Positions 1,300-63,162 of a stretch of 64,000 nucleotides of DNA are shown one piece after another. This DNA is from Nitrospirota bacterium (GTDB taxonomy: Bacteria; Nitrospirota; Nitrospiria; 2-01-FULL-66-17): contig JACQCD010000002.1 in the NCBI GenBank assembly GCA_016201825.1, forward strand, positions 2,080 to 66,079, read 5' to 3'. The notes under the pieces were generated by a model that had not been told where the DNA came from, did no database searches, and saw nothing but the letters and a program-made list of their open reading frames with translations. How positions within the stretch are numbered: the stretch's first letter is position 1; each line of letters begins with the position of its first letter. A program made the translations under genes and the position numbers.

Positions 1300-2058
1300 T
1301 TAGGCCGACCCGCGTGCGCTGGTGACCGGCCACGGCCCACCGCAGCACTTCTTGAACTTCTTCCCGCTCCCGCACGGACACAGGTCATTTCGGCCGACCC
1401 TGGGACGTACCGCCGACTCGGGCTCCGGAGTATCCTGTTCGAGAAGCACCTGAAAGATGGCGCGTCCCAAGTGGGCATATCTGTCCATCGAGTCGGGGAA
1501 GAGCATCACGACCGTTTCGGCGAGACGCTCCAGGCTCGTCTCCTTCTTGGCCTCCTTAAGATAGGCCTGGGCGAGCTTGGGGGACGCAAAAAAGGTGAGG
1601 ACCATCAGGATCGCGCCCAGCTCCTGGTCGAGCTCGGCGGGCGTGCATTCGTCCCAGAGTTCTTCGACATAACCGTGCCCAGCGGCGAACCCTCGCGCCC
1701 ACTGGCTGAGGGGCGCATCGGCATCGAGGTTATCCAGCGGAGTCGTTCGGATCTCGCACTCCGGCGGCAAAGCCGCACTTCCCTCCACCCCTAGGCGGTT
1801 GCACACGTTGAAGAGTGCCATCATCGCCTCAAGGACCTCCATCGCTTCGTCCCGCGTCCCGTAGTTGGCGTCCTGGTCGTCGAACACCATCGGCAACCAC
1901 TCCGAGGGCGGCACCAACTCCGGCGCGCACGCGATGCTGAAGAGAAATCCCGCGAGGTGCGGGTAGGTCATCGTGCCCTTCGGGCGCTGGGTCGCCGCCA
2001 GGAAGCGGCGCAGGAGGGCCGCATGGGCTTTCGTGAATTCGGGGATCGCGTTCATCAT
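1300..2058 (-). CDS. YecA/UPF0149-family protein with C-terminal SEC-C zinc motif
   Basis: The central region has the UPF0149-like [22 protein letters not shown]. The C-terminus [19 protein letters not shown] is a SEC-C metal-binding motif. The start is placed at the internal ATG-ATG (residue 107 of the track ORF, 2058), because the upstream 106 codons encode an asnB-like fragment. Confidence 0.5.
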
Positions 2059-2515
2059 CGCTCGGCCGTCGTCTTGGGGGTTGAGACACGCATCAGGATT
2101 TATTATGAAGCAGCCGCCCGGAATCTCCCGCCAATGGCATCGAGTAAAATCGCACCTGAGCCATGGTGAAAACCAGCCTGGCCCCTTTTCTTTCCCAAAC
2201 AGATGGACGATGACCTCCGTGTCCGTCTGAGTCTTGAGGCGGTGCCCGCGCTCAACAACACGGTCGCCCAATGTTCGATAGTTATATGCTTCCCCGTTAT
2301 AGACGATTCCAACCCGTCCATCTTCGTTATAGATCGGCTGGGCGCCGTCGGTTCGGTCCACGATCGCGAGACGCACGTTCAGGAATCCTCGGTGGCCATC
2401 GAGATGGATCCCCGTCCGGTTCGCGATGCCGGATCGCCTTGGCCATAACGTCGAGGTCGCAACGCTCGACGACCCGGTTCTCGCCTTTATAGATGATTCC
2501 TGCTATTCCACACAT
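2059..2515 (-). pseudogene. Asparagine synthetase (glutamine-hydrolysing) N-terminal GATase fragment, frameshifted and truncated
   Basis: [36 protein letters not shown] (class II glutamine amidotransferase N-terminus) occurs in ORF 2327..2644. After a frame change it continues as [46 protein letters not shown] in the frame of ORF 1300..2376. No synthetase domain follows. Confidence 0.45.
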
Positions 2516-4126: not shown

Positions 4127-4612
4127 ATGAATCGCCGTCAATTCCTCACATACCTCACCGGCCTCTCGGCCCTGCTCATCGGCCGAATCGCATTCGGGCA
4201 GCAGGAGCCGGCGCCGGCCATCGAGAAGATCCACCGCTCCGAGGCCGAGTGGCGGGCCTTGCTCACGCCCGAGCAGTTCCGGGTGATGCGACACGAAGGG
4301 ACCGAGGCTCGCTTTTCCAGCCCGTTGACCCAGAAGACCGAAGCGGGCGAGTATCGCTGCGCGGGGTGTGATTTGACGTTGTTTACGTCGGAGATGAAGT
4401 ACGACAGCAAGACCGGCTGGCCGAGCTTCTTCACCGTCATCCCCGGGCGGGTGGAGACCAGACGAGACTTTGCGCTGCTCTTCCCCCGCACCGAATACCA
4501 CTGCGCGCGCTGCGGGGGGCACCACGGTCATCTCTTTCACGACGGCCCCCGGCCGACCAAGCTGCGCTACTGCAACAACGGCATCGCCCTGCGGTTCGTG
4601 GCCGCGGGCTGA
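4127..4612 (+). CDS. msrB: Peptide-methionine (R)-S-oxide reductase MsrB with twin-arginine signal peptide
   Basis: The N-terminus MNRRQFLTYLTGLSALLIG is a Tat signal. The SelR domain has CAGC...CARCGGHHGHLFHDGP (two CxxC zinc/catalytic motifs). Confidence 0.85.
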   Translation: MNRRQFLTYLTGLSALLIGRIAFGQQEPAPAIEKIHRSEAEWRALLTPEQFRVMRHEGTEARFSSPLTQKTEAGEYRCAGCDLTLFTSEMKYDSKTGWPSFFTVIPGRVETRRDFALLFPRTEYHCARCGGHHGHLFHDGPRPTKLRYCNNGIALRFVAAG

Positions 4613-4895: not shown

Positions 4896-5699
4896 CTACG
4901 ACTTGGCGCAGCGCATACCGGTATCCGCAAAGCCGAACTCCGGCCCGATGTAGAAACGGTGGGCGCTGCGGTAAAAATACGGAAGCGCGTAATGGCCGGT
5001 CCCGCCCCAGCTCGAACCGCGGAGCACCTTGAACTTCCGGCCGAAATCCTTGCTCTCGTACGTGCTGCCGGGGTAGGGTTGGTACCAATCGGCGGTCCAT
5101 TCCCAGACGTTGCCCGCCATGTCGTCGACGCCGTAGGGGCTCTTGCCCTGGGGAAAGCTGCCCACCGCCGCAAGATCGTTCACCCCCGAGCCGCCCGTGT
5201 TCGCTTTCTTTTCGTCGAACTCGTTGCCCCACGGGTACTCGCGGCCGTCGGTCCCCCGGGCGGCCTTCTCCCATTCCGCCTCGGTCGGCAACCGCTTGCC
5301 GGCCCACCGGCAATACAGATCCGCATCGTACCAGTTCACGTTCGTGACCGGATACCGCTCGCGGCCGTTCGGCACGTTGCCGTCGGGCCAGCTCTTGGGC
5401 GGACGCGCCTTGGTCGCCACGACGTACTGGCGGTACTCCGCGTTGGTCACCTCGTAGAGGTCGATCTCATACGCCGGCAGTTCGACCGTCCGCTGCGGGT
5501 GCTCGTCCATGTATAGCGGCTTGGCCATCCCGAACTCGTTGCCCTTACCCTCGGTGTCGACCTTGTCGCTGCCCATCGTGAACGGTCCGGCCGGGATCTT
5601 GACCATGCCGAGGGAAACGGCCCCTTTGTCGCATCCCGCCGCCGTCGCGATGAGGGCCGCCGCGATCACGGCGCCGAGGCATCGGATCCGGCGCCTCAC
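4896..5699 (-). CDS. FGE-sulfatase-family (SUMF1/EgtB/PvdO-type) lipoprotein lacking the FGE catalytic Cys pair
   Basis: The start is reassigned to the GTG at residue 136 of the track ORF. That start overlaps the upstream gene's TGA (GTGA) and is followed by the lipoprotein signal (M)[22 protein letters not shown]. The FGE domain shows [41 protein letters not shown] and GMRCAKS. The N-terminal 135 codons of the track ORF are out-of-frame overlap with the upstream gene. Confidence 0.7.
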   Translation of the reverse strand: MRRRIRCLGAVIAAALIATAAGCDKGAVSLGMVKIPAGPFTMGSDKVDTEGKGNEFGMAKPLYMDEHPQRTVELPAYEIDLYEVTNAEYRQYVVATKARPPKSWPDGNVPNGRERYPVTNVNWYDADLYCRWAGKRLPTEAEWEKAARGTDGREYPWGNEFDEKKANTGGSGVNDLAAVGSFPQGKSPYGVDDMAGNVWEWTADWYQPYPGSTYESKDFGRKFKVLRGSSWGGTGHYALPYFYRSAHRFYIGPEFGFADTGMRCAKS

Positions 5700-6667
5700 T
5701 TGGCGCACCGGAAGCCGAATCCGCTGTTCTTGGTCTCGCGCTTGAAGAAGCCGCGATTGAAGACCGGCGCCGAGAGACCGCAGCGGTAGAACGAGCAGTC
5801 GACGTACGAACCGCCGCGGACGACTTTGTACTGCTCGCCGTAATTGACCGTCGGATGGGTGTTCCCGGGGTACGGCAGGTACCAGCTCTCGGTCCACTCC
5901 CAGACGTTGCCCGAGGCGTCGAACAGACCGTAGGGGCTCTTCCCTTGCGGGAAACTCCCCACCGGCGTCAGGTGCCCGATCCCGCTCTGGGGCGAATTGG
6001 ATTTTTTCGCGTCGAACGTGTCGCCCCACGGGAAGAGCCGGCCATCGGTGCCGCGCGCGGCCTTCTCCCATTCGGCCTCGGTGGGCAGGCGCTTGCCCGC
6101 CCACGCGCAGTACTCGTGCGCGTCGTGCCAGGTGACGTAGACCACCGGGAGCTTCTCGTCGCCCGGGGCGAACGATCCGCCGCGCCAGTGATCCGGCGGG
6201 GGATGCCCGGTCGCTTCGACGAACTTGCGATACGCCTCGTTCGTCACCTCATACTTATCCATCCAGTAAGGATGGTCGATCGTTTCAGTGTGCATCGGCC
6301 CCTCGTCCGGGTGGCGTTTGTCGTAGCCCATGAGGAACGGCCCCGCCGGGATCTGAACCATGTCGACGGTGACGGCCAAGGGCTTGTCGGCCGCCTTGGG
6401 CTTGCGGGGATGCTCGTCGATCGGGGGCAACACGCGCGTGTCCTCGCTCGTCCGCCGCAACTCGTGGCAACTGCCGCAGGTCGCGGCATCGAACGACGCC
6501 TGGTCGGCGGGATGAGTCGGAAGATGGCAGGCGCGACAGGCCTCCTGATCCCACAGGTCGCTCATGCCCGCGTGCGGATCTCCCGCCGCAGACACCCAGC
6601 CGCCACTCCCCATCGCCGCGCAGAACACGACGATCGCCGACACGCGTCGAATCACGTCGGCGAGCAT
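5696..6667 (-). CDS. Diheme c-type cytochrome domain fused to FGE-sulfatase domain (retains FGE-like Cys-x4-Cys pair)
   Basis: A signal peptide [29 protein letters not shown] is followed by CRACH and CGSCH (two CxxCH heme-c motifs). The FGE domain then shows [42 protein letters not shown] (aligning with the FGE GGSxxCHxSYC active-site cysteines) and GFGFRCAK. Confidence 0.7.
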
Positions 6668-50039: not shown

Positions 50040-53000
50040 TTAGGGACGGGTGAACACGAGCACGGCATCCGACCCGAAACTCTGGACCCATGCTCCGTTC
50101 CACGGCTTGAACGTCGCCGGTGGACTGGTCGAGAGTCCGTACGGTTGCGTCGTCACCCCGTCATACAGATAGATCGCCGGGCCGACCCAGCCGTTTGTCA
50201 CCGCATTCTGATACGGCACCGGCGCTCCGGCCCCACGTTTGACCTGAACCTGGCTCAACAGAATATCCTGCTCGTACGGGTTCCCGACCATGTTGAATCC
50301 CAACTCGAGCGGCACATCAAAGGTCGGACTAGAGACCACCGGACCTGGCGCGTCCAAGACCGCCTGCGTGCCCAGGGAGCGAAGAAAATACGCTGATCCG
50401 GCGTGGATCGGACCAAGAACCCCGCACGGGGAAAACGCGGGCGTTGACACCGTCCCCTCGTAGCACCCGTCGGTCGGAAGGGGGCCGGACGGATTCCAAC
50501 GGTAGGCGTACACGGGAATCCCGACATCGTCGCCGAACACTCCATCGGCCGTGTCGCTGCCGACCACGGGAATCCGGGGAACCGACACCATGGTATAGCC
50601 GAGTCGCAATGCCGTCCGTCCCACGGCCACGTTCGACAAGCCCGATCGATTGCCTCCATCGTCGATGGCTTGGATCGCGAAGTAATAATTTGTATTCGAG
50701 GTCAGCCCACCCACGAGTACTTGCTGCGCCTGGCCGGAAGGACCGGGAGCAGCCGCCGCCATAACCGTTCCCTGGCTGAAATTAACCGATGTGAGGGGGA
50801 ATGTTGCGTAGCGTACGTCGTACGCCGCGGCGGTTCCGACCGAGCCGTCGTCGCCGGTTGCCGTCCACGTGAGCAAGAGCGACGCGCCCTTCGCCGCGCC
50901 GGAGAACACGGCCAGATCCGTGATCACGGCCGGGGCAATTGTGTCTGCGGACGGAGGGGCGGTTGAGGCGTCTAAAACATTCGACACCGTACCAAGCTGA
51001 CTGAACGCGTCCATGGCCCTCACCGCCACGTGGTAGGTCGTCCCCGGAACGAGGCCGTCGATGACCAGGCTTGCCGTCGTCCCGCTGCTCTGGGGAGTGT
51101 GGAGCGTGTACGGCGTCGCCGTGTCGAAATTGAAGGGGGTCGAGGTCGAGTATCGCACCAGGTAGCCGGCCAGCGGGCCCGAGTCGTCGACGGGAACGGT
51201 CCATTGAACACTCACGGTATTCGCCGTGGGCGCCGCGGCGCCAGGTCGGAGGTCGGCAATCGCCGGCGGGGGTTGATCAACTGGGGTTGTCACCGTCACC
51301 GGCGCCGACCACCCCGACGCATTCGGAATTTCATCCAACGCCCGGAGCTCAAACACGTAGGTGTTGCCTCCGCGCAGCGTGGAGACCGTCAGCGTTTCGG
51401 TTCCACCGGGAGTCTTGGTGGGGGTGATCGCTTGTACACTCGTAACTGTTCCGAGTGTGCGGCGCAACTCGTATCGGCCGACCATCCCCCCGGCTAACCC
51501 ATCGTCCCCAACCGCCGTCCACGTGAAGCTCACGGATATCGGCGTGGGCGCGCCTGCCACCAACGCTGGCGTCGCGGGAGGCGTGGTGTCGGCCGTCACC
51601 GGCGGCGGGGTGATCCCGGGACCCGCTCCACTCGAGTGTTGCGCCAAGCTCACGGCGACCGCGCGACCGGCGACCAGCGTATTTCGGGATAGCACGGCAT
51701 CGAACGCCGACACCAGACCGGAGCCGCTCGCTTGCGCCTCAAGGGCGGTCGCGGCGTCCCAGGCGGTTCCCGTCCACCGTGTGAGCGTGACACGACCCTG
51801 CGTGTCGAACACGCTGAGCGCCAAGCCGTCGGTCCCGCGGGCGGACGCGAGCTCGATCCACGCCGGGTATGGGGTGAAACTCACTGCTGCTCCCGCAGCG
51901 TGGCTAGCGGCAGATGTCCCGAGAGTACCACGAGTCAGACCCGACAGGATCGTCACCGTGCCTATCCCACTCGGCATCTGGCACGAGGTCGTGGTTTCGG
52001 CCTTGCTGGTATACCGAATGGTCTCGACATCCACCGCGACAAGGCCCGAGAACGGGAACGCGATGTCGTTACAAATGGACAGCGCTGTTCCGGACGCCAA
52101 TACAGCGGAATCGAGCTTCGCCGCCAACACCGTCGTCGGCAGCGGCGACGGGATGGGGGACTCAGCCGACCAGCCCCCGGCGGACGACCACGCCCGCGAG
52201 GCGCCGCGCTGGCCGGCCTGAGTGGTGTACGCGGCCAACAGCTCCCCGCTCGTTCCCTCCCACGCGAGATCAAAGCTCCGGCCACCGGCCTCGCTCATCA
52301 GACTCGTGGTCAAGGTGTCGGCGGTCGCCGACCATTGCGCCCCGTCCCAGATCAGGACATTGAGCGCCAACGCCGATGTCCCGCTGCTTGCGGCCAGCGC
52401 AATGCGATTTGAGGTCGCGGAGAGATCGCCCACCAGTCGGAGGGCCGTGAGGGGACCGCTCCCCGCAGACGGCGTCGTGCCTTCGACGCCCCATCCGCCG
52501 ATGTCCGCTAGATCCCGACTCCACACGCGGTAGTGCGGCGTGCTTTCTCCTGCTGCTGCCCACGCGGCCATCATCCTTCCCGTCACCCGTTCGAACGCAA
52601 CATCGACGATTGGCGCGTCGTGACCTGCCGCGTTGGTGGTCAACAGGACGGAGTCTTCCCACGCCTGGCGACTGCCTCGCCAGACCACCGCGGCGACGTC
52701 GTCGTTCTGGTCTTCGTAGACAAGAACCATGTCGTTCGTCGCCGGGCGTGCCTCAAGGCGAACCCACAGCGGTCGGCCCGTGGTCTGTTGGCCGTTGACC
52801 AGATCCTCGACCAGCGCTTCGGCGCTCCAGCTTGCGCCGTCCCATATGCGATAGCGCAGCGAGGTGGAGTCAGTTCGCGCGTAGACGACCACAGCGTGTC
52901 CGGTCTGCTGCTCGTACGCCACGTCCACGGCCTGCGTGGGCCGCGCCAGCCCGACCGACGACGTGGCCTCGATCGCGCCGGTCCACACCTGGCCGTTCCA

Positions 53001-56000
53001 CACACTGAGCATCAGGCGGCGCTGATCATCCACGACGGCCAGGATCCGCTCATCCCGAATCGGATTGGCCTTCATCACCTGCCAGACCGGGGAGGCGGAA
53101 AGGGACGGGCCGGTCAGCCGGCTCGACCATGCTCCGCCTATCCATCGCTGGTACTGAACGGCCGGAACGCCTTGCTGGCCGTATGACGCGATCGCCGAGA
53201 TCAGGTCGGCCGGCGGGGTTCCGACGTAAAACGCCCTGTCCGCGGTGATGCGCCCCCCGTCAGGATTCGTGACGGTTAGGGCATGGTATCCCGCCGCGGC
53301 ACCGGTCGCCACGGTCAATTGGGCGCTCAGGGTCGCCGTGTCGATCCGCGTCAGCCCGCTCACTGTGAGCTCGCTGTCAAAGGCAATCCCCACGCCGGGT
53401 TGGAAGCCCGCGCCCACGATGGTGAGCGCAATCGCGGGACCCTGATTCCCGTAGGCAGGCGTCAACGTCGAAACGGAGGGCCCCGCGTTGATCGTCATCA
53501 GACCCGATCCCCGTCCGTCGTCGGAATTGGTCACGACCACCGGATAACTCCCCGGCAGAACACTTGGTGCGACCGCCACGTTCGCACACGCGATCGTGGA
53601 GTCATTCGTCGCCGCGCACGTTCCGGTGACACCGGCGGGGAGCGTCACGGTGGCTGCGACCAGGGTGCCCGCATCAAAGTTTCCCCCGCTCACGGTGAGC
53701 GACATCCCGGACGCCCCGACGCCCAGCGCCGGACTGACCGATGCGACCGTCGGCGGCGGATTGATCATCACGCGACACGTGGAGCACCCCGAGGTAAACC
53801 CGCTGGGGGTCGTCAACGTCACGTCGCGAAAACCCGGGGCGGCGGTCTCCACCACGTTGATCGTGACCGTTCCCCCGTCGCCGTCCGCGTTGGCGCGGAA
53901 ATTGGCGATGGGATTGGTCACCTGAACATCATAGGTGCCGGGTCTTAACAGCGGATCCGTCGGGTCAAGCGACCGATCCGTGTCCCAGTAAAACTTGATC
54001 TGCTCCGGGCTGACGTACACGCACGGCGTGGAGGAGGTCGGCGTTGAACCTTGGACCGCCACGCAGGAGAGATCGCCCACGACGACCGCCGCTCCGGGCC
54101 GGAATCCGGAATCGGCATCGCTGAAGCCGACAATCGTCACGGCCCGGCTCGTGGTAATCCCGGCCGTGACGACGGCGGGGGCCAGTTTCTCGACGCGAGG
54201 CCGCGGAGCTCTGATGGTGAATCCACCGGGCAAGCTCCCTAGCCCCGCCCCGACGTAGGAGGGATTTGTCACCTGCACCGCGTACGAACCGGGCTGTATC
54301 GCGGTTCCTGGTGAGGTTGCTCCATTATCCCAATAGAATTCCAAATGCGTATTACTCACATAGACGCACGGCACGGTCGGACTCGCCACCGTTCCCGAAA
54401 CCGCCGTGCACGTGAACGTCCCAACCGTGATCACTGGCCCATCGGCCCCGACGGGCGCATAGAATCTTGAGCCCCTGATCGCGACGGATTGACTCGGGGT
54501 CACCGCAAAGTCGACCGTCGAAGGCGTCACGCTCTGGATGATGGGGAGCGGAGGAGCGACGGTAAATGCCTTGTCGAGGAAGAACCATAAGCCGCCGGCG
54601 CTCTGAGGGTTCGTTACCTGCACCGGATAGACACCCGGCGCCAGTCCCGTGTTGGCCCAGTAGAAACTGAGCCGCGTCGCGCTCACGAACGCAAAAGGAA
54701 CCGTGGCCGTGGCTTGCGAACCACTCACTGTGACCCCGGACAGGCACGTCCTCGGCTGGCACACCCCTCCGGTCAGCGTCCCAATCGTGACGGTGGCTCC
54801 AGTGGTGAAATTCGTCCCGAAGATCGAGATCGACTGACTCGCGGTCACGTCGTACGTCACCGGGCTCAGGACGACGGTGGTGATGGTCGGCTGCGGAGCA
54901 TCCACCCTGAACCCGTCGGCCAGACTCACCGTTGCGCCGCCACTCGCCGCGGGATTGGTCACCGTGACGGTGTACGAGCCGATGGCCAGCGACGTGTTGG
55001 GCCAGTAGAAACTCAGCCGGCTGCTGCTCACAAACACAAAAGGGGTCGTCGCGGTCGCCGTTGCGCCCGCCACCGTCGTCCCCGGCAGCGTGGTCGTCGT
55101 CGTTGGGCTGCTGATCGTGATCGTGGCGCCCACCAGGAAATTCGTCCCGAAGATCGACACCGCCGTACTCGGCGTGACCCCGTAGGTCGCCGAACTCGGA
55201 AACGTCGAGGTGACCGTCAACTGGGCTCCCGCGACGGTGAAGCCGTCGACCAGCGTAGCGGCCAGACCACCCGCCGCGGCGGGATTCGTGACCTCCACGG
55301 TATAGGTGGCCGCATCCAGCGACGTGTTGGGCCAGTAAAACCTGAGTTGGCCGCTGCTCACGAAGACAAAGGGCGTCGTCGCAGTCGCCGTCGTGCCCGC
55401 CACCGTGGTCCCCGACAGCGTTTTCGTCGACGAGGGGCTGCTGATCCTGACCCGGGCTCCAACAACGAAACCCGACCCGAAAATGCTGATACTCCCGGTC
55501 GCCGACACTCCGTACGTAACGGGGTTCGGGCTGGTGCTAGTGACCGTGGGTTGCGGGGCGGCCACACTGAAGCCGTCTGCCAGGCTCGCCCCCAACCCTC
55601 CGGCGGCCGAGGGATTGGTGACTTGGACGGTGTACGAGCCGATGGCCAGCGACGTGTTGGGCCAGTAGAAACTCAGCCGGCTGCTGCTCACGTAGACGAA
55701 CGGGGTTGCGGCGGTCGCTGTGCTGCCTGCCACCGTCGTCCCCGACAAACTCCCCACCGTGATCGTGGCCCCCACGATGAAACTCGACCCGATGATCGAG
55801 ATCGAATTACTGGAACTGATGCCATAGGTGACTAGCGTGGGGCTCACGCTGCTGACCGTGGGTTGCGGAGCCGCCACACTGAAGCCGTTTGCCAGACTCG
55901 CCCCCAACCCTCCGGCGGCCGAGGGATTGGTGACTTGGACGGTGTACACGCCCGGCAGCAGCGCCGTGTTGGGCCAGTAGAACTTGAGTTGGCTGCTGCT

Positions 56001-56573
56001 CACGTAGACGAAGGGTGTTGCGGCGGTCGCTGTGCTGCCCGCCACCGTCGTCCCCGACAGGCCCCCCACCGTGATCGTCGCCCCCACCACGAAATTCGTC
56101 CCAAAGATCGATACCGACGCGCTGGGCGAGATCGCATACGTCTCGGCGCTCGGCGACACGCTGCTGACCGTGGGCTGGGGAGCCCGGACGGTGAATCCGC
56201 CCGTGAAGGTAACCGATTCTAATGTCGGATTTGTGACTTGGACGTCGTACACCCCGGGAGCCAGGCTTGTGTTCGGCCAATAGAACTTGAGCTGGCTCGC
56301 GCTCACGTACACGAAGGGCGTCGTCGCCGTGGCCGTCGAACCCGCAACCGCCGCGCCGGATCGGCTGCCGACCGTGATCGTCGCGTTCAGTTGGAAATTC
56401 GCGCCAAAGATCGTGACCGACGAACTCTCGGTGACCGCGTAGGTGACCGACGCGGGGGTGACCGAGCTGATCGTGGGTGGAAGCGCCATCGCGGGTGCGG
56501 ACACCCCGCACACCGCCGCAAACACCACGCCGCCCACAAGGGTCCACCCACTTCGTCGTTGAGAAATCGACAC
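50040..56573 (-). CDS. Giant secreted/surface protein: signal peptide, ~10 IPT/TIG domains, Trp-rich repeat (propeller-like) region, 3 FN3 domains, and an unknown C-terminal domain
   Basis: The start is reassigned to the GTG at residue 46 of the track ORF. It is preceded by a T-run and AAGGAGG plus 5 nt, giving the signal peptide (M)SISQRRSGWTLVGGVVFAAVCGVSAPAMA|LPPT. Next come ~95-aa tandem repeats (PQPTVSSVSP...TYG...SIFGTNF.VGATITVG.LSGTTVAGSTATAATPFVYVSSS.L.FYWPNT.L..G.YTVQVTNP). A central region has recurring W.G..W units (RIWDGASWSAE, LIWDGAQWSAT, TRWTGTAWDAA). Three FN3-like modules follow (YELRRT...TYVFELRALD; YLVRYSTS...TYHVAVRAMD; YDVRYATF...NYYFAIQAID). No C-terminal TM or sortase motif is present. 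Confidence 0.7.
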   Translation of the reverse strand: MSISQRRSGWTLVGGVVFAAVCGVSAPAMALPPTISSVTPASVTYAVTESSSVTIFGANFQLNATITVGSRSGAAVAGSTATATTPFVYVSASQLKFYWPNTSLAPGVYDVQVTNPTLESVTFTGGFTVRAPQPTVSSVSPSAETYAISPSASVSIFGTNFVVGATITVGGLSGTTVAGSTATAATPFVYVSSSQLKFYWPNTALLPGVYTVQVTNPSAAGGLGASLANGFSVAAPQPTVSSVSPTLVTYGISSSNSISIIGSSFIVGATITVGSLSGTTVAGSTATAATPFVYVSSSRLSFYWPNTSLAIGSYTVQVTNPSAAGGLGASLADGFSVAAPQPTVTSTSPNPVTYGVSATGSISIFGSGFVVGARVRISSPSSTKTLSGTTVAGTTATATTPFVFVSSGQLRFYWPNTSLDAATYTVEVTNPAAAGGLAATLVDGFTVAGAQLTVTSTFPSSATYGVTPSTAVSIFGTNFLVGATITISSPTTTTTLPGTTVAGATATATTPFVFVSSSRLSFYWPNTSLAIGSYTVTVTNPAASGGATVSLADGFRVDAPQPTITTVVLSPVTYDVTASQSISIFGTNFTTGATVTIGTLTGGVCQPRTCLSGVTVSGSQATATVPFAFVSATRLSFYWANTGLAPGVYPVQVTNPQSAGGLWFFLDKAFTVAPPLPIIQSVTPSTVDFAVTPSQSVAIRGSRFYAPVGADGPVITVGTFTCTAVSGTVASPTVPCVYVSNTHLEFYWDNGATSPGTAIQPGSYAVQVTNPSYVGAGLGSLPGGFTIRAPRPRVEKLAPAVVTAGITTSRAVTIVGFSDADSGFRPGAAVVVGDLSCVAVQGSTPTSSTPCVYVSPEQIKFYWDTDRSLDPTDPLLRPGTYDVQVTNPIANFRANADGDGGTVTINVVETAAPGFRDVTLTTPSGFTSGCSTCRVMINPPPTVASVSPALGVGASGMSLTVSGGNFDAGTLVAATVTLPAGVTGTCAATNDSTIACANVAVAPSVLPGSYPVVVTNSDDGRGSGLMTINAGPSVSTLTPAYGNQGPAIALTIVGAGFQPGVGIAFDSELTVSGLTRIDTATLSAQLTVATGAAAGYHALTVTNPDGGRITADRAFYVGTPPADLISAIASYGQQGVPAVQYQRWIGGAWSSRLTGPSLSASPVWQVMKANPIRDERILAVVDDQRRLMLSVWNGQVWTGAIEATSSVGLARPTQAVDVAYEQQTGHAVVVYARTDSTSLRYRIWDGASWSAEALVEDLVNGQQTTGRPLWVRLEARPATNDMVLVYEDQNDDVAAVVWRGSRQAWEDSVLLTTNAAGHDAPIVDVAFERVTGRMMAAWAAAGESTPHYRVWSRDLADIGGWGVEGTTPSAGSGPLTALRLVGDLSATSNRIALAASSGTSALALNVLIWDGAQWSATADTLTTSLMSEAGGRSFDLAWEGTSGELLAAYTTQAGQRGASRAWSSAGGWSAESPIPSPLPTTVLAAKLDSAVLASGTALSICNDIAFPFSGLVAVDVETIRYTSKAETTTSCQMPSGIGTVTILSGLTRGTLGTSAASHAAGAAVSFTPYPAWIELASARGTDGLALSVFDTQGRVTLTRWTGTAWDAATALEAQASGSGLVSAFDAVLSRNTLVAGRAVAVSLAQHSSGAGPGITPPPVTADTTPPATPALVAGAPTPISVSFTWTAVGDDGLAGGMVGRYELRRTLGTVTSVQAITPTKTPGGTETLTVSTLRGGNTYVFELRALDEIPNASGWSAPVTVTTPVDQPPPAIADLRPGAAAPTANTVSVQWTVPVDDSGPLAGYLVRYSTSTPFNFDTATPYTLHTPQSSGTTASLVIDGLVPGTTYHVAVRAMDAFSQLGTVSNVLDASTAPPSADTIAPAVITDLAVFSGAAKGASLLLTWTATGDDGSVGTAAAYDVRYATFPLTSVNFSQGTVMAAAAPGPSGQAQQVLVGGLTSNTNYYFAIQAIDDGGNRSGLSNVAVGRTALRLGYTMVSVPRIPVVGSDTADGVFGDDVGIPVYAYRWNPSGPLPTDGCYEGTVSTPAFSPCGVLGPIHAGSAYFLRSLGTQAVLDAPGPVVSSPTFDVPLELGFNMVGNPYEQDILLSQVQVKRGAGAPVPYQNAVTNGWVGPAIYLYDGVTTQPYGLSTSPPATFKPWNGAWVQSFGSDAVLVFTRP
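54650..56480. repeat. Intragenic near-identical DNA tandem repeats (~300-330 nt period, at least 5 copies) encoding the IPT/TIG modules
   Basis: The motif gacgtgttgggccagta(g/a)aa recurs at about 54991, 55321 and 55651, with diverged copies at about 55961 and 56261. Stretches of ~95 nt at about 55541-55635 and 55853-55947 are ~95% identical at the nucleotide level. Confidence 0.6.
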
Positions 56574-56706
56574 CCGCCCCTCCTTAAAAAAAAGAGTAGT
56601 GATGACCGGGGATGACACGAATCCCCTCTGCCTTAGACCTGGACGGGCGCGATTTATTCCGATTTTGCGCGTGCGGCGCTCAAAGCCCGGAACAGGATCG
56701 GCCGCC

Positions 56707-56736
56707 ACTATATCGGTGATATTTCAAGGCTGTCAA
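56707..56736 (-). promoter_or_regulatory. Candidate sigma70-type promoter for the giant gene (-35 TTGACA, 18-nt spacer, -10 TATAGT)
   Basis: The minus-strand reading is cTTGACAgccttgaaatatcaccgaTATAGTggc. It lies between the DUF3105 stop (56748) and the giant-gene start (56573), implying a ~125-nt leader. Confidence 0.35.
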
Positions 56737-57281: not shown

Positions 57282-57372
57282 AGGGGTTTTATCCTACGGC
57301 TGACCCCACCACCAAGTCAATCCGGGCCGTGTCGCCTTGACAGGCTGGAGAGGTTTCAGTAGAGTACGGCCC

Positions 57373-58344
57373 ATGCGGAATGTCCTTCCTCGTGTCGGCA
57401 TCAAACGCATGGTGTGGGCCGTGGTGCTGGGTTCTGCGCTCGTCGGTTGTACCTCGACGATACCTCCCCCTCAGTTTGATTTCTCCGCCCAGCGCACCAC
57501 CTTCCTCACCCACGACACCTTCGACAACCTGAACCCAACCTGGAGTCCCGACGGAAACACGGTCGTCTACGTGTCCAACCGGAACGGCGGGTGGAATCTC
57601 TGGGCCGTCACGCTCGACGGCGCCGCGCCGCGCGCCCTGACGACGGGGCCCGGTGAAGACCGGTTTCCCGCGTTCTCTCCCGACGGCAAGCGTCTCGCCT
57701 TTGCGTCGCGGCGCTCCGGGAACTGGGACATCTGGGCGGTCAACCCCGACGGCACGGGGCTCGCTCAACTCACCACCCATCGCATGGACGATCTGGCTCC
57801 CGCCTGGAGCTGGGACGGCAAGCAGATTGCCTTCGACTCATATCGGGATTTCGAGTACAGCATCTACGTCATGGACGCCGACGGCGCCAACCAGCGTAAG
57901 TTGACCACTGGCGGCAACGGCGATTGGGGGGCGTCGTTCGCTCCATCGGGCGACACGGTCGTGTTCGCCTCGACGCGCACCGGGCATGGCGATCTGTACG
58001 CGATCGATCTGGCCGGAAAGGGGCCGTACCGGCGCCTCACTCAGACCGAAAACGAACGCGAGATGATTCCGACGTTCAATGCGGATGGATCCAAAATTGC
58101 GTTCGTGGCCGAGCGCGAGGGCGGGCGCGACATCTGGGTGATGGATCCCGACGGGAGTCGCCAGACACGCCTCACCCGCAATCTGTCGGGAGCCTGGCAA
58201 CCGCGGTTCAGCGTGGACCGGGAACTCTACGCGGCGATCGGGTACTTCACCGTGGCGTGGAGTCCTGACGGCCGTTCGCTCGCCTATACCCATGTCGACC
58301 GCGATGGGACGGGACAGATCGCGATCCTCTCGCTCGCCCGCTAG
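57373..58344 (+). CDS. PD40/TolB-like beta-propeller lipoprotein
   Basis: A signal plus lipobox MRNVLPRVGIKRMVWAVVLGSALVGC. PD40 repeats follow: PTWSPDGNTVVYVSNRNGGWNLW, PAFSPDGKRLAFASRRSGNWDIW, PAWSWDGKQIAFDS, ASFAPSGDTVVFAS, PTFNADGSKIAFVAEREGGRDIW. The start is placed at the ATG (residue 13) after a TTG track start. Confidence 0.65.
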   Translation: MRNVLPRVGIKRMVWAVVLGSALVGCTSTIPPPQFDFSAQRTTFLTHDTFDNLNPTWSPDGNTVVYVSNRNGGWNLWAVTLDGAAPRALTTGPGEDRFPAFSPDGKRLAFASRRSGNWDIWAVNPDGTGLAQLTTHRMDDLAPAWSWDGKQIAFDSYRDFEYSIYVMDADGANQRKLTTGGNGDWGASFAPSGDTVVFASTRTGHGDLYAIDLAGKGPYRRLTQTENEREMIPTFNADGSKIAFVAEREGGRDIWVMDPDGSRQTRLTRNLSGAWQPRFSVDRELYAAIGYFTVAWSPDGRSLAYTHVDRDGTGQIAILSLAR

Positions 58345-58552: not shown

Positions 58553-59491
58553 ATGCGAACCGCCCTCGTTGGGCTTCTGCTTGTGGGCATCGCCGCCGGT
58601 TGCCAGCCGGTCGCTCCGGGATCGCTCGTACTGTCGCCTCCGCAGGCGGCGGTCTCCCGTCAACTCACCTTCTCTCCCGGTAACGATTTTTCTCCGGCGT
58701 GGAGTCCAGACGGCCGTTCCATCGTGTACGTGTCGGACCAAGCCGGCGCGTGGAATCTGTGGACCGTGGATCCACAGGGCCAGGCGCCTCGGGCGTTGAC
58801 GTTCGATCGGTTCCAGTATTCGAGTCCGTCGTTCACCCCCGACGGCGCGTCGATCGTGGTGGCGTCCGACCGCGGCTCTCCGTTGCGGGCGTGGCTCGAC
58901 CTCTGGCTGCTCTCGCGCGAGGGCACGCCGGAACGACGGCTGCTCTCGGAAACGCCGAGCGTCAAAGAGTTCGCTCCGGTCATCTCGCCGGACGGTCGCC
59001 TGCTTGCCTATCTCGATCTTCCAATGAGCCGCGCCCCCCAATACCGTGTGGTGGTCGTCGAACTTCCGGGGGGAATCCCGCGCGTGGTCACGGAGGATCG
59101 CGTCCTGTTCTCGCCGGTCCGGTTCAGCCCGGACGGGCGACAACTGCTCTTTACCTCCGATCGTCTCGGAACGGCCGACGTGTGGATCACGGGGGCGGAC
59201 GGGAGCGGGGCGCGGGCGCTGACGATGAGCCCCGCCGTGGAAACCGTAGGTGACTGGAGCCGTGACGGCTCCACGGTCGTCTTCGTATCAGACCAGAGCG
59301 GCCACGACGAGTTGTGGCTGATGGACGCTCAGGGGCAGGATCGGCGCCAGCTCACGAACGACAGCGACACCGCGTCGCTGCCCGCGTTCTCGCCCGACGG
59401 CGCGTGGGTCGTCTACACGTCCACCAAATCGCACAACCAGGATCTGTGGATCATCCCATCGGGACTAAGACCGGCAATCAGTAATCCTTAG
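58553..59491 (+). CDS. PD40/TolB-like beta-propeller lipoprotein (paralogue)
   Basis: MRTALVGLLLVGIAAGC (lipobox). PD40 repeats follow: PAWSPDGRSIVYVSDQAGAWNLW, PSFTPDGASIVVASDR, PVISPDGRLLAYL, VRFSPDGRQLLFTSDRLGTADVW, PAFSPDGAWVVYTSTKSHNQDLW. Confidence 0.65.
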   Translation: MRTALVGLLLVGIAAGCQPVAPGSLVLSPPQAAVSRQLTFSPGNDFSPAWSPDGRSIVYVSDQAGAWNLWTVDPQGQAPRALTFDRFQYSSPSFTPDGASIVVASDRGSPLRAWLDLWLLSREGTPERRLLSETPSVKEFAPVISPDGRLLAYLDLPMSRAPQYRVVVVELPGGIPRVVTEDRVLFSPVRFSPDGRQLLFTSDRLGTADVWITGADGSGARALTMSPAVETVGDWSRDGSTVVFVSDQSGHDELWLMDAQGQDRRQLTNDSDTASLPAFSPDGAWVVYTSTKSHNQDLWIIPSGLRPAISNP

Positions 59492-59578: not shown

Positions 59579-61447
59579 TTACGGTTCTATAATCTGTATC
59601 GTCCGGTTGGCTTCAAAGGGCCCCTGGATCGCCTGGTGTCGCCCTGTTGGCCAAATAATGTCGACCCTGTCTATCGTCCGGTGTTCGCCCAAACCGAAAT
59701 AGATCGGGATTTGGCTCTGCGAGAGATAGCCCGACTTGCCATCGATGTAACGAACCTGGCGGTTACCGCCGTAGGAGATGCTCACCCACGCTCCAATCGC
59801 GTTGCGATTCGAAGCCGTTCCCACCAGTTCCATTTTGAGGTAATGGATCCTACGGCGCTGAGCCAGGTTGCTCACCAAGACCTGCGGAACATCGTTAAAT
59901 TCAGTCGTAACGATGTCCAGATCCCCGTCATTATCGAGGTCGAAGATCACCGAAGAACGAGAACTCCGAGCCCCGCTGACGAACCCGTTCCGATAACAGA
60001 TCCCATCGACCACGCAATCTTGACTAGTGTTAAACACACGGGAGCACTCCACGCGCTCCTGATCACGACCGCCGCAGTCGAGTGCAAAGTAGTCGCCGAT
60101 GAGGGTGCCGTTCGCTCGCGGCTCGATGTTGAGCTCCTTTTCCGCATGCCTGAACCGCTCGCCCTTCTCGTTGATCAGCACCACATTTTTGGCATACGGA
60201 AATGGATACCCCATACCAGACGCCACAAACACGTCTTGATATTGGTCCGCGTCCAGATCCTCGACGCTGATTCCCCAGGGCCAGTAGGTTTCTGCACCGA
60301 TGGCATCCGACATTTCTTCGTAACGGCCATCGCCCATATTCTTATAGAACGTATTCCCCAAGATGTTGTGACTGACATCGCCCATCATCCGCGGGGCCAG
60401 CTCGCGGGGCAGTTTCATGGTCTCCGCTGTGATTCCCCCAAACATGTCCGAGTGCATGTCGGTGGTCATGAGGTCGATGAGCCCGTCGTTGTCGAAATCG
60501 AAGAACTTGATACCCATGGCTCCCCACCCTGTCTTCGGAAACACGGTGGGGGTCACTTCGATGAAGCGCGTCCCACCCACGTTCTCAAAGAACTGATCGT
60601 CGCCCTGCATGTTCGTCACGTAAAGATCCGGGTACCCGTCGTTGTTGTAATCCGCGATCGAGGCGTCCCCATTCCATCCCACGAGATCACCAAGCCCCAT
60701 CTCGCGGCTCACATCTTTAAAGCGCCCACCGCCTAAATTTTTATAGAGGATGCTTCGCTCCGCAAATTCCGGTTGGAGATGCAATTCAAAGGCCCTCTCG
60801 CGCCCCACGTAGTAACCCTGGGAGTCGAACTCGTCGGTAGTGTATCGGCCCACATTCACCACCAAGAGGTCCAGCAACCCGTCACGATCAAAGTCAAAAA
60901 ATACCGCCCCAGACGAATGCCCGTGATAGTCTAATCCAGACGATTCGGTCATGTCCCGAAAAACACCGTTTCCTTCATTCTCCAATAGGACATTGCCCCC
61001 CCGGACCGCTGTGACAAACAAATCCTGGTCTCCATCGTTATCAATATCGGCAAACGCCCCGCCGACACCGACCCGATCACCCAACCCGGTATGAGAGACC
61101 TCCGTAATATCTCGAAATCTGCCCTCACCCAAATTCTTATACAGAGCATTGGCACCGACTTGGTTGATAAAATATAGGTCCACAAGACCGTCGTGATCCA
61201 CGTCGGCGGCGAGGACCCCATTTCCGTGGTCGTAATGGACCGCCTTATAGCGCCGACCCGCATCGTGGACGATCCGATGCCGGAACGTAATGCCAGACTT
61301 CTCTTGCTGATTCGTGAATGAAAACGACGAGGGAGCCGTGGACTGACCTGGGGGCGTGGTGTGCCAATCGCCGAGGGAACCGGAACACCCGCCCAGGACA
61401 ATCAAGATAATGGCCCCAAGAGGAGACCGGCTCCCGATCGTCGTCAT
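59579..61447 (-). CDS. CRTAC1-family lipoprotein (FG-GAP/VCBS-like repeats plus C-terminal ASPIC/UnbV domain)
   Basis: A lipoprotein signal MTTIGSRSPLGAIILIVLGGC. Repeated D-x-D-x-DG loops follow (DVDHDGLVDLYF, DIDNDGDQDLFV, DFDRDGLLDLLV, DYNNDGYPDLYV, DFDNDGLIDLMT, DLDNDGDLDIVT). The C-terminal region ...AIGAWVSISYGGNRQVRYIDGKSGYLSQSQIPIYFGLGE... is typical of UnbV_ASPIC. Confidence 0.6.
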   Translation of the reverse strand: MTTIGSRSPLGAIILIVLGGCSGSLGDWHTTPPGQSTAPSSFSFTNQQEKSGITFRHRIVHDAGRRYKAVHYDHGNGVLAADVDHDGLVDLYFINQVGANALYKNLGEGRFRDITEVSHTGLGDRVGVGGAFADIDNDGDQDLFVTAVRGGNVLLENEGNGVFRDMTESSGLDYHGHSSGAVFFDFDRDGLLDLLVVNVGRYTTDEFDSQGYYVGRERAFELHLQPEFAERSILYKNLGGGRFKDVSREMGLGDLVGWNGDASIADYNNDGYPDLYVTNMQGDDQFFENVGGTRFIEVTPTVFPKTGWGAMGIKFFDFDNDGLIDLMTTDMHSDMFGGITAETMKLPRELAPRMMGDVSHNILGNTFYKNMGDGRYEEMSDAIGAETYWPWGISVEDLDADQYQDVFVASGMGYPFPYAKNVVLINEKGERFRHAEKELNIEPRANGTLIGDYFALDCGGRDQERVECSRVFNTSQDCVVDGICYRNGFVSGARSSRSSVIFDLDNDGDLDIVTTEFNDVPQVLVSNLAQRRRIHYLKMELVGTASNRNAIGAWVSISYGGNRQVRYIDGKSGYLSQSQIPIYFGLGEHRTIDRVDIIWPTGRHQAIQGPFEANRTIQIIEP

Positions 61448-61565: not shown

Positions 61566-62375
61566 TTAACGGGAATCCTTCGCACAGCGGAACCCCACGT
61601 CGTAGCCGGTATGCCAGTCGGTGTCGCGGTCGTTGATCGCGAACAATTCAGGCGCGTAGCGGTGGGTGGCGCGGGCGAAGGGTTGGGCCGGCACGCCCCA
61701 TGACCCGCCGCGGAGCACTCGGTTGCTTTTACCGAACGCGGAGCGGGTGAGCGTGCTCCCAGGGTAGGCCTCGTACCAGGAGCTCGTCCACTCCCAGACG
61801 TTCCCGATCATGTCTTCGACCCCGTACACGCTGGCGCCACCGGGATAGCTCCCCACCGGCCGGCTCCACGCCAGACCGGACTCCATCGTATTGGCGCGAT
61901 CGGACGAAAACCCCGTGCCCCACGGATACGCGGCGCCGTCGGGACCGCGAGCGGCCTTTTCCCACTCGGCTTCGGTCGGCAGGCGCTTGCCGGCCCACCG
62001 GCAGTAGGCGTCGGCGTCGTACCAGTCGGTGTCGGATACGGGGTTGGTGGGCTCGCGCCGGAGCGCGTCGCGTTCCCGCCAGGGCGCGGGGAGGTAGGTC
62101 GACCCCGTCGCGTTAATGAACTTGGCATACTCCGCGTTGGTGACCTCGTAACGATCGATGAAGTAGGCTGGGAGCACAACTTGATGGCGGGGCAATTCAT
62201 CGACCCCCACCTCAATGCCCACCACCCCCTCTCGCTCGTCGCTCCCCATCCAGAACGGTCCCGCCGGAATCAGAACCATCCCCGGCTGCGAATCACCGGA
62301 CGGCACAATCGGCGCCAGACTGCAGGCGCCCGAGAGCAAGCCCACCATCAGCGTGAAGACCCGCCTCATCCGCAT
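61566..62375 (-). CDS. FGE-sulfatase-family lipoprotein (no catalytic Cys pair)
   Basis: The start is placed at the internal ATG (residue 44), 4 nt after AAGGAGA: MRMRRVFTLMVGLLSGAC (lipobox). Then [41 protein letters not shown] and GFRCAKDSR. Confidence 0.7.
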   Translation of the reverse strand: MRMRRVFTLMVGLLSGACSLAPIVPSGDSQPGMVLIPAGPFWMGSDEREGVVGIEVGVDELPRHQVVLPAYFIDRYEVTNAEYAKFINATGSTYLPAPWRERDALRREPTNPVSDTDWYDADAYCRWAGKRLPTEAEWEKAARGPDGAAYPWGTGFSSDRANTMESGLAWSRPVGSYPGGASVYGVEDMIGNVWEWTSSWYEAYPGSTLTRSAFGKSNRVLRGGSWGVPAQPFARATHRYAPELFAINDRDTDWHTGYDVGFRCAKDSR

Positions 62376-62388
62376 GCCCTCTCCTTCC

Positions 62389-63162
62389 TCATCCCACGTC
62401 CTTAGCGCAGCGCGCGCCAAAATGGGGATGATCCCATTTCGGCGCGATCGCATGGCGGTTGGCCGCCCGGCTGAACGGCAGGGGCGGCGTGGTCCACGCC
62501 CCACCCTTTAGCACGCGGTATTTCTGGCCGAAGTCCGGCCGGGCGAGCGTGCTGCCTGGGTACTGTTCGTACCACGACGCCGTCCACTCCATCACGTTGC
62601 CGGCCATATCGTAAGCCCCGTAGGGACTCACATCGCCCGGGTGGCTTCCGACCGGCGCGGTATCCCCGAGGCCGCGGTCCTGAAGATTAGCCGTCCCCGC
62701 ATGATACTCCGAGCCCCACGGCCAGAGACGACCATCCTCGCCGCGCGCCGCTTTTTCCCATTCGGCCTCGGTGGGAAGGCGCTTCCCGGCCCAGCGGCAA
62801 TAGGCATCCGCATCATCCCACGAGAGGTCGCTGACCGGATGATCATTGCGGCGCGGCCGGTCACCGGCCCAGAGCCGCGGCGCGCGGTGACCGGTCTGTT
62901 GCACGAAGTTCGCGTACTCCGCCTCGGTCACCTCGTGCCGATCGATCCAAAACGCGGGAAGCTTCACCCGATGCTGGGGGGTCTCATCGACCCCCTGCTC
63001 AAACCACGCGAGGGCGGGGTTGGGTGCACTCCCCATCGCGAACCACCCGGCGGGCACCACCACCATCCCGGGCGGCGGATCGCGAGGGACCACCACCGCA
63101 GAGGCGCATGCCACCAGCGCAAACACCGCGCTTCCCGTAAGAAGCCACCCCTTATTTGGCAC
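62389..63162 (-). CDS. FGE-sulfatase-family lipoprotein (no catalytic Cys pair)
   Basis: The start is placed at the GTG (residue 43 of the track ORF), overlapping the upstream gene's stop by 11 nt: (M)PNKGWLLTGSAVFALVAC. Then [40 protein letters not shown] and GARCAKDVG. Confidence 0.65.
   Translation of the reverse strand: MPNKGWLLTGSAVFALVACASAVVVPRDPPPGMVVVPAGWFAMGSAPNPALAWFEQGVDETPQHRVKLPAFWIDRHEVTEAEYANFVQQTGHRAPRLWAGDRPRRNDHPVSDLSWDDADAYCRWAGKRLPTEAEWEKAARGEDGRLWPWGSEYHAGTANLQDRGLGDTAPVGSHPGDVSPYGAYDMAGNVMEWTASWYEQYPGSTLARPDFGQKYRVLKGGAWTTPPLPFSRAANRHAIAPKWDHPHFGARCAKDVG

Follow-up and report, generated by a model that had tools for sequence, protein, structure and literature searches.

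What might be the function of a bacterial protein that carries two haem c attachment motifs ahead of a domain of the formylglycine-generating enzyme (FGE) type? The question is raised by a gene in a 64,000-nt stretch of DNA from a Nitrospirota bacterium (assembly GCA_016201825.1, contig JACQCD010000002.1), here called the window. This gene, hereafter gene A, is a minus-strand open reading frame (ORF) of 323 amino acids in the ORF list; its coordinates, 5696-6667, include the stop codon. A first-pass annotation, made from the sequence, proposed that the product is an FGE-like oxidase with a tethered dihaem cytochrome as its built-in electron donor. The present analysis sustains that proposal in part. 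Export, two conserved haem motifs and an invariant C-x4-C pair speak for it; against it, the FGE-like domain is, judged by its sequence, not that of an FGE orthologue, and haem-less relatives exist. Gene A belongs to a widespread and uncharacterised family of exported bacterial proteins (family A), and with its neighbor, gene B, it makes up a conserved two-gene cassette that is predicted to be periplasmic. We tentatively favor the view that the pair is a periplasmic redox module.

Family A joins a dihaem cytochrome c to an FGE-like domain

The proposed Sec signal followed by CRACH and CGSCH was confirmed by translation and hydropathy. The N-terminus has an RR n-region, a hydrophobic core with a Kyte-Doolittle maximum of 2.2 at residues 10-20, and a VSA cleavage-type site followed by AG, and the product is probably Sec-exported and periplasmic. 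Both CxxCH motifs lie downstream of the signal segment, within hydrophilic sequence. Their distance had been given as about 17 residues; one motif actually starts 20 residues after the other, which leaves 15 residues between H48 and C64. A CxxCH pair at this spacing is far beyond chance, and the same start-to-start spacing is seen in 61 of 82 family A members.

A database search for the same fusion recovered it many times. The homologue sample consists of the 120 best matches, 88-45% identical to gene A, all of them from metagenomes or metagenome-assembled genomes (MAGs) and named Nitrospirota, Nitrospira sp., Leptospirillia or Gammaproteobacteria. A C-x2-Y-x-C-G motif, within a block of the form D-C-x2-Y-x-C-G...S-A-P-x-F-N-R, is carried by 115 of these 120, and 81 of those 115 have exactly two CxxCH motifs. 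Among 38 aligned full-length members, which are about 50% identical, both CxxCH motifs, C291, Y294, C296, G297, N304 and R305 are invariant. The source annotations read "formylglycine-generating enzyme family protein", "SUMF1/EgtB/PvdO family nonheme iron enzyme", "iron(II)-dependent oxidoreductase" or "serine/threonine-protein kinase", and none mentions the haem motifs; the FGE label on these entries is probably wrong. In line with the first-pass annotation, which knew of no characterised example, the searchable literature yielded no account of a cytochrome c-FGE fusion or of the A-B gene pair, on topics that included DUF323 with cytochrome, NirV, and Nitrospira with sulfatase-modifying factor.

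A scan of genome contigs extended the range of the family. It returned 80 loci; one of its two patterns (EWEKAARG) is generic, and most of the loci hold ordinary FGE-like paralogues. Family A members were found in MAGs of Thermodesulfobacteriota and Deltaproteobacteria, which are probable anaerobes, and in Chromatiales-type sulfur oxidisers. The Zetaproteobacteria locus (L053) was rejected as a family A member.

Outside the CxxCH motifs the cytochrome module is highly variable across the family, and two further histidines are kept in each subfamily. In the query subfamily they occur in D-P-H upstream and in L-P-T-H after motif 1; in the gammaproteobacterial subfamily they stand at +5 after the first CxxCH and at about +7 after the second. 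Since each subfamily has two extra histidines near the haem motifs, the haems of gene A are probably of the bis-His electron-transfer type. The 20-residue spacing equals that of haems I and II in STC, the small tetrahaem cytochrome of Shewanella, and the module resembles STC/CctA and the Geobacter c7-type cytochromes in having about 20-25 residues per haem and candidate bis-His ligation. It differs from them in having two haem motifs only, joined to an enzyme-like domain, and in that all matches fall below curated thresholds. The linker that follows is weakly conserved and varies in length among homologues. The AlphaFold2 (AF2) model gives it a predicted local distance difference test (pLDDT) value of <65, and AF2 models the cytochrome module and linker poorly, as expected without haem.

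An invariant cysteine block in the copper loop

Residues 290-305 of gene A are located between the GGS strand and a conserved Arg, which is the loop of the Cu(I) ligands in FGE. Here D290, C291, Y294, C296, G297, S299 and N304 never vary within family A and are lacking in B-type and generic paralogues alike, and the stretch from D290 to N304 is the most conserved part of the protein. Such strict conservation is typical of an active site. Five FGE-like paralogues are present in the window by tblastn, as Pfam confirms, all on the minus strand (5696-6667, 4902-5621, 61578-62279, 62401-63066 and 63155-63853). As had been pointed out before, gene A alone among the five has cysteines, C291 and C296, in the loop after GGS.

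How the block is to be laid over the FGE loop depends on the method. In four alignments (phmmer with human FGE, the family profile against the PDB, hhalign and MAFFT-add), C291 falls on the second catalytic cysteine (human C341; C274 of T. curvata FGE, tcFGE), C296 on human C346, a Val position in the bacterial enzymes, and Y294 on the Tyr of the Y-R dipeptide before C346. Four residues, including the first catalytic cysteine, are deleted in these alignments and six (SAPxFN) are inserted before the conserved Arg. The reverse hmmsearch, with an FGE profile against the family, puts both cysteines on or next to both catalytic cysteines, with single-residue indels and a posterior of only 0.3-0.5. 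Counting from the anchors S287 (human S333) and R305 (human R349) leaves the pair one residue off C336/C341. The loop of gene A is two residues longer than the FGE loop and has the same length as the SUMF2 and gene B loops.

The claim that the pair aligns with the copper-binding cysteines is thus not established: the pair is in the copper loop, so not away from the copper site, but both cysteines are matched in one alignment of five, at low confidence. In either register the pair is predicted to be within the copper loop, with at least one cysteine on or next to the place of a copper ligand, while the register itself, that is, which catalytic cysteines C291 and C296 match, stays ambiguous to sequence methods.

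Relation of the domain to true FGEs

The first-pass annotation described the C-terminal domain as a full FGE-sulfatase fold. The Pfam FGE-sulfatase match does run from end to end (E 1.3e-59, residues 101-323, profile positions 3-255 of 255), and the AF2 model of the domain has pLDDT >90. Foldseek matched this model to CalU17, SUMF2, tcFGE, S. coelicolor FGE (scFGE), human FGE and ToxD, with E 1e-19 to 1e-22. Two FGE-invariant segments are nevertheless missing. As a reference for true FGEs, 120 genuine bacterial FGEs were retrieved and 40 of them aligned. The family A profile matches the bacterial FGE profile with hhalign probability 100 and 39% identity, with two deletions that are seen by both hhalign and MAFFT: one of about 40 residues, containing the FGE-invariant APWW...WRHPEGP, and one of about 13 residues, containing the FGE-invariant NIWQGxFP.

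Columns W88, W89, N168, Q171, G172, F174 and P175 are accordingly gaps in 13 of 13 family A members. Of 70 columns invariant in the 40 aligned FGEs, family A keeps 35; those lost include W88/W89, N168-P175, H247, S249, Y250 and R253. The last is tcFGE R276, the Arg two residues after the second cysteine, whose place is taken in family A by Phe, Tyr or Gly, or by Leu/Ile in the alternative register. In tcFGE, W108/W109 and R276 line the O2/substrate pocket (PMC6676471). Since both segments and the R276 equivalent are missing and only half of the invariant columns are kept, the domain is, on sequence grounds, not that of an FGE orthologue. The Ser and Trp of the O2/anion pocket (tcFGE S266 and W228; columns S243 and W208) are kept as S287 and W256; the window's four Cys-less paralogues have their equivalents too, which leaves the two residues without diagnostic value. 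A conserved C187-C321 pair matches the structural disulfide C218-C365 of human FGE.

In sum, the domain shares with the Cu-dependent FGEs (human SUMF1; T. curvata and S. coelicolor FGE) the same fold (Foldseek E ~1e-19 to 1e-20, template modelling (TM) score 0.6-0.69), the GGS-strand Ser, the Trp of N-x-W-E-W, the positions of the C218-C365-type disulfide, the Arg after the loop (human R349) and a C-x4-C in the active-site loop. It differs from them in its predicted export, its fused dihaem cytochrome and the lack of a sulfatase context, in lacking the ~40- and ~13-residue segments, the His after the first cysteine and the Arg after the second, in the 6-residue SAPxFN insertion, and in a loop register that is shifted or ambiguous.

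The model of the first-pass annotation is attractive because the physiological reductant of FGE, rightly said there to be unsettled, is still unidentified (PMC12123546). Gene A would, on that model, encode a self-sufficient FGE in which Cu(I) at C291/C296 activates O2 and converts a peptidyl-Cys to formylglycine in a periplasmic protein other than a sulfatase, with the dihaem supplying two electrons. The C-x4-C spacing is identical to that of FGE, in the same loop, and both the reverse profile search and the anchors S287/R305 bring the pair to, or to within one residue of, both catalytic cysteines; the O2-pocket Ser and Trp are retained, and two haems mean two electrons, which matches the two-electron reduction that FGE needs. 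However, the first catalytic cysteine is deleted in four of five alignments, and APWW...WRHPEGP, NIWQGxFP and the R276 equivalent, which are invariant in 40 true FGEs and of which W108/W109 and R276 contact the substrate/O2 pocket, are gone. Neither the window nor the 19 related loci contain a gene for a sulfatase or one bearing CxPxR, family A occurs in probable anaerobes, and some of its members have no haem motifs. Furthermore, the reductant step of FGE reduces a Cu-bound sulfenate, which is thiol-type chemistry. We therefore regard a self-sufficient FGE as unlikely.

The sulfoxide synthases EgtB, OvoA and SenA also have a metal-bearing N-terminal domain before an FGE-like domain, and they give the best NCBIfam matches of gene A (E 5e-33 and 1e-31), in the C-terminal part only. 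Membership was rejected on scores of 114.7 against 360 bits for EgtB, 110.4 against 420 for SenA and 47.5 against 400 for OvoA, with only the C-terminal FGE-like part matching. Gene A differs from these enzymes in having neither a DinB domain nor a His triad, in its haem c cofactor, and in being predicted periplasmic rather than cytoplasmic. PvdO (72 against 500 bits), GldK (89.7 against 350) and GldJ (25.8 against 458) were likewise rejected, there being no pyoverdine or type IX secretion system (T9SS) neighbors. An identity as a Tsi3-like type VI secretion system (T6SS) immunity protein has both scores and gene context against it. An identity as NirV was rejected on the ground that no retrieved locus has a nirK-like neighbor, a judgment made from adjacency alone, with no NirV model compared.

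With PvdO, PorK/GldK and Tsi3, gene A does have in common an exported FGE-like fold without the FGE-specific inserts, and PorK/GldK are lipoproteins, as gene B is predicted to be. It differs in that those proteins have neither the Cys pair nor a cytochrome, and in that their contexts (pyoverdine, T9SS and T6SS, respectively) are absent here. A profile search at E <= 1e-3 counted 246,782 representatives of the FGE superfamily at 50% identity. Giant proteins with multiple FGE domains dominated its result, and only 8 of the top 150 belong to family A, which is a small, compact branch of the superfamily.

This breadth bears on another reading, in which the FGE-like domains of A and B would have no catalytic role and would serve for binding or as scaffolds, like those of PvdO, PorK/GldK, SUMF2 and Tsi3, C291-C296 would be a structural disulfide stapling the loop, and the dihaem would transfer electrons to a bound partner. 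Non-FGEs make up most of the 246,782 cluster representatives; the periplasmic PvdO, PorK and Tsi3 are binders without catalytic cysteines; half of the FGE-invariant positions are missing in family A; and gene B would be a lipoprotein like PorK/GldK. In addition, the match of C187-C321 to the human disulfide leads one to expect disulfides in an exported fold of this kind. On the other hand, the whole D-C-x2-Y-x-C-G-x-S block is invariant, its non-cysteine residues included, which is more than is usual for a loop staple. Most lineages have a redox cofactor domain in the fusion, the surroundings offer no T9SS, T6SS or pyoverdine context, and the NCBIfam scores are far under the PvdO and GldK cut-offs. 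A pair of pure binding modules is, in our judgment, possible but doubtful.

Genes A and B form a conserved cassette

Gene B, which the first-pass annotation did not mention, follows gene A and has a lipobox A-A-G-C (...LIATAAG, then C), the loop motif GGTGHY...FYR and no loop cysteines. The stop of gene A and the start of gene B share four nucleotides (Table 1), and the two genes are predicted to be translationally coupled.

A B-type gene comes after A in about 15 of the 19 distinct loci. The two are adjacent in the window and in L001, L002, L004, L006, L007, L008, L010, L011, L013, L084, L087, L089, L090 and L092, the junction being a 4-nt overlap (also in L002, L084 and L087) or a gap of <35 nt; L007 has two tandem B-type genes after A. 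Among the exceptions, B lies 1.6 kb downstream in L009, there is no partner in L005, L012 and L015, and in L086 (7932-9998) a second dihaem protein with the Cys pair, of the DC-LS-Y-G-CG type, stands where B would be, making an A-A' pair. The B-type loop motif across loci is G-(G)-x-G-H-Y...[FY][FY]-R, and most B proteins have a lipobox.

The A-B pair is kept in Nitrospirota, Gamma- and Betaproteobacteria and Desulfobacterota, whereas the other neighbors differ by lineage (SerRS, Rho, SecA, Mfd, thiamine genes and others). Since all other neighbors vary while the pair recurs, the unit under selection is the A-B pair, a conserved two-gene cassette whose predicted location is the periplasm. The earlier statement that no sulfatase lies nearby holds, as no sulfatase signature was found in the 64-kb window. 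No sulfatase Pfam family occurs among the neighbors in L001, L002, L084, L086, L087, L089, L090 and L092, and no sulfatase, copper, sox or nir genes recur around the pair among the related loci.

The absence of copper genes matters for a further alternative, in which the pair would handle periplasmic copper, with the cysteines as a Cu(I) chaperone-type site and the dihaem reducing Cu(II) to Cu(I) for cuproenzyme assembly. Copper-trafficking proteins coordinate Cu(I) in the way that FGE does, by a linear bis-Cys site (PMC6676471), and a position among housekeeping genes would fit a general maturation role. Nevertheless, there are no copper genes nearby and no Met- or His-rich motifs, and the idea is pure inference; we hold it to be very improbable.

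Two observations on the neighborhood may be added. Gammaproteobacterial loci have, upstream of A-B and in divergent orientation, two genes for small monohaem c-type cytochromes (L002, 8605-9669, minus strand), which could be lineage-specific electron partners. In the window, an MsrB gene (SelR, E 5e-42) at 4127-4612 on the plus strand is convergent with gene B; its product has a twin-arginine-like N-terminal signal, MNRRQFLTYLTGLSALLIG, and is apparently periplasmic. MsrB was rejected as a functional partner, as its adjacency is kept in no related locus.

The pairing of a Cys-bearing with a Cys-less FGE-fold paralogue recalls SUMF1 (FGE) and its Cys-less paralogue SUMF2 (pFGE), which reportedly heterodimerise. 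SUMF2 is also the best PDB sequence match of gene A (1y4j, E 1.7e-30), with a loop of the same length that aligns gap-free. Unlike SUMF1-SUMF2, A-B is a bacterial operon predicted to be translationally coupled, its Cys-less member is a putative lipoprotein with its own invariant G-H-Y motif, and the association of A with B would follow from the gene arrangement.

A proposed redox module

Is the cytochrome essential to whatever family A does? About 15 homologues are genuinely haem-less, the signal peptide running directly into the FGE-like domain, and they keep the Cys block. Several other apparently haem-less database members are gene-call truncations; for example, the gammaproteobacterial protein P0102 (L090, 537-1679) was called from too late a start, and CVACH and CVDCH lie in frame just upstream. 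Since the genuinely haem-less members keep both the Cys pair and B, the haems are not obligatory for the core function, and the cytochrome is a frequent but dispensable addition.

The same members are our ground for disfavoring the proposal that one or both invariant cysteines are axial haem ligands, giving a His/Cys haem as in TsdA, SoxAX and DsrJ, in a sulfur-compound oxidoreductase. Two invariant cysteines accompany two haems, family A occurs in Chromatiales-type sulfur oxidisers, and the extra histidines are not at universally conserved positions, all of which would suit such ligation; yet the Cys pair persists in members without haem, two extra histidines are conserved in every subfamily, and there are no sox or dsr neighbors. 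A His/Cys haem enzyme seems to us the most improbable of the alternatives.

We propose instead, as a tentative working model that we put ahead of the others without holding it to be established, that A and B constitute a periplasmic redox module, a redox-active thiolate centre served by two haems, with A anchored by B. In the exported A protein, a very small dihaem cytochrome module would be tethered by a flexible linker to the trimmed FGE-like domain. B would probably anchor A to the membrane as a heterodimer, by analogy with catalytic SUMF1 and Cys-less SUMF2. The invariant block would be the redox-active thiolate centre, either a Cu(I) bis-thiolate as in FGE or a dithiol/disulfide, and by way of the two haems up to two electrons would move between the centre and carriers in the periplasm. 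The substrate would be something other than a neighboring sulfatase.

Several points weigh against this model. The interaction of A with B is inferred from gene order alone. Within the domain, AF2 is least confident about the cysteine loop (residues 291-300, pLDDT 68), and the spatial place of C291 and C296 rests on sequence. A C-x4-C in the oxidising periplasm could be a plain structural disulfide, and about 15 haem-less members retain the Cys pair and B. A match of the N-terminal region to a known haem-binding fold, which the cytochrome assignment of the first-pass annotation would lead one to expect, did not emerge at threshold: gene A reaches 18.8 bits for Cytochrome_C7 (cut-off 24.8), 17.4 for Cytochrom_c3_2 (25) and 17.7 for CctA (180). 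The Pfam matches to c7, c3 and MtrC-type cytochrome families and the NCBIfam match to CctA are thus weak and sub-threshold, and the match of the module to Shewanella STC in the PDB (E 0.04) is not significant.

In a bolder version, A-B would be a self-contained FGE-fold oxidase, copper-thiolate or Cys/Tyr-based, that is recharged by its own dihaem. Acting in chemolithoautotrophs on periplasmic proteins other than sulfatases, it would oxidise cysteines after translation, with formylglycine or something else as the product. We think this distinctly unlikely.

Features of genes A and B and of the rest of the window

Table 1. Positions of genes A and B and of their parts in the window
Feature	Position	Strand	Basis
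Gene A, fusion of a dihaem cytochrome c and an FGE-like domain, probably exported	5696..6667	-	ORF list; Pfam; homologues 88-45% identity
Sec-type signal peptide of gene A (predicted), residues 1-27	6587..6667	-	Sequence inspection and hydropathy
Haem c attachment motif 1, C44-R-A-C47-H48 (CRACH)	6524..6538	-	Translation; invariant in 38/38 aligned homologues
Haem c attachment motif 2, C64-G-S-C67-H68 (CGSCH)	6464..6478	-	Translation; invariant in alignment
Pro/Lys/Ala-rich linker, residues 69-100, from cytochrome module to FGE-like domain	6368..6463	-	Alignment; AF2
Trimmed FGE-like domain of gene A, residues 101-323	5699..6367	-	Pfam; AF2; Foldseek; hhalign
Family-defining block D290-C291-S-F-Y294-R-C296-G297-L-S299-A-P-V-F-N304-R305	5753..5800	-	Translation; alignments
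GTGA overlap of gene A stop and gene B start	5696..5699	-	Sequence
Gene B, Cys-less FGE-like lipoprotein (predicted), 267 aa, GTG start	4896..5699	-	Sequence; Pfam E 2e-57
Sigma-70-like promoter match TTGACT-18-TATGCT, upstream of and overlapping the gene A start codon	6663..6692	-	Consensus scan, 9/12 matches

A single sigma-70-like match lies upstream of gene A, and its -10 hexamer, TATGCT, overlaps the annotated ATG; the match is a prediction only, a consensus scan being no evidence of function. An alternative start could be the GTG at 6653-6655 (V5), possibly with a leaderless or short-leader mRNA, and the signal peptide would be unaffected.

At the other end of the window, 61566-63949 on the minus strand holds the three tandem FGE-like paralogues, without loop cysteines or haem motifs. 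They adjoin a gene for an FG-GAP/ASPIC (UnbV) repeat protein (59579-61447, minus strand), with two TolB-like beta-propeller genes further on (57337-58344 and 58553-59491, plus strand). L001 and L087 likewise encode an FG-GAP protein, at a distance of a few genes from A-B. At 50040-56708 (minus strand), a secreted protein of 2222 amino acids has many near-identical repeats of about 95 residues (...PQPTVSSVSP...VQVTNP...), followed by fibronectin-III-like repeats, and is probably a giant surface or adhesin protein. One ORF at 1300-2376 (minus strand) combines a GATase_7 fragment (residues 2-69), UPF0149 and a C-terminal SEC-C motif; it is probably either a YecA-like gene with an internal true start or what remains of a fusion to a gene resembling asparagine synthase.

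Implications

FGE is widely used for aldehyde-tag bioconjugation, and no other mononuclear Cu(I) bis-thiolate oxygenase is known to us. The natural, conserved joining of an FGE-fold C-x4-C loop to a cytochrome offers a concrete test of electron delivery from haem to thiolate or from haem to copper. If the oxidase reading were true, gene A would encode an FGE-type enzyme whose electron donor is both known and built in, the first of its kind. Current database labels of family A overlook the cytochrome. Even with a different chemistry, A and B would define an uncharacterised, translationally coupled periplasmic pair that extends across Nitrospirota, Gamma- and Betaproteobacteria and Desulfobacterota.

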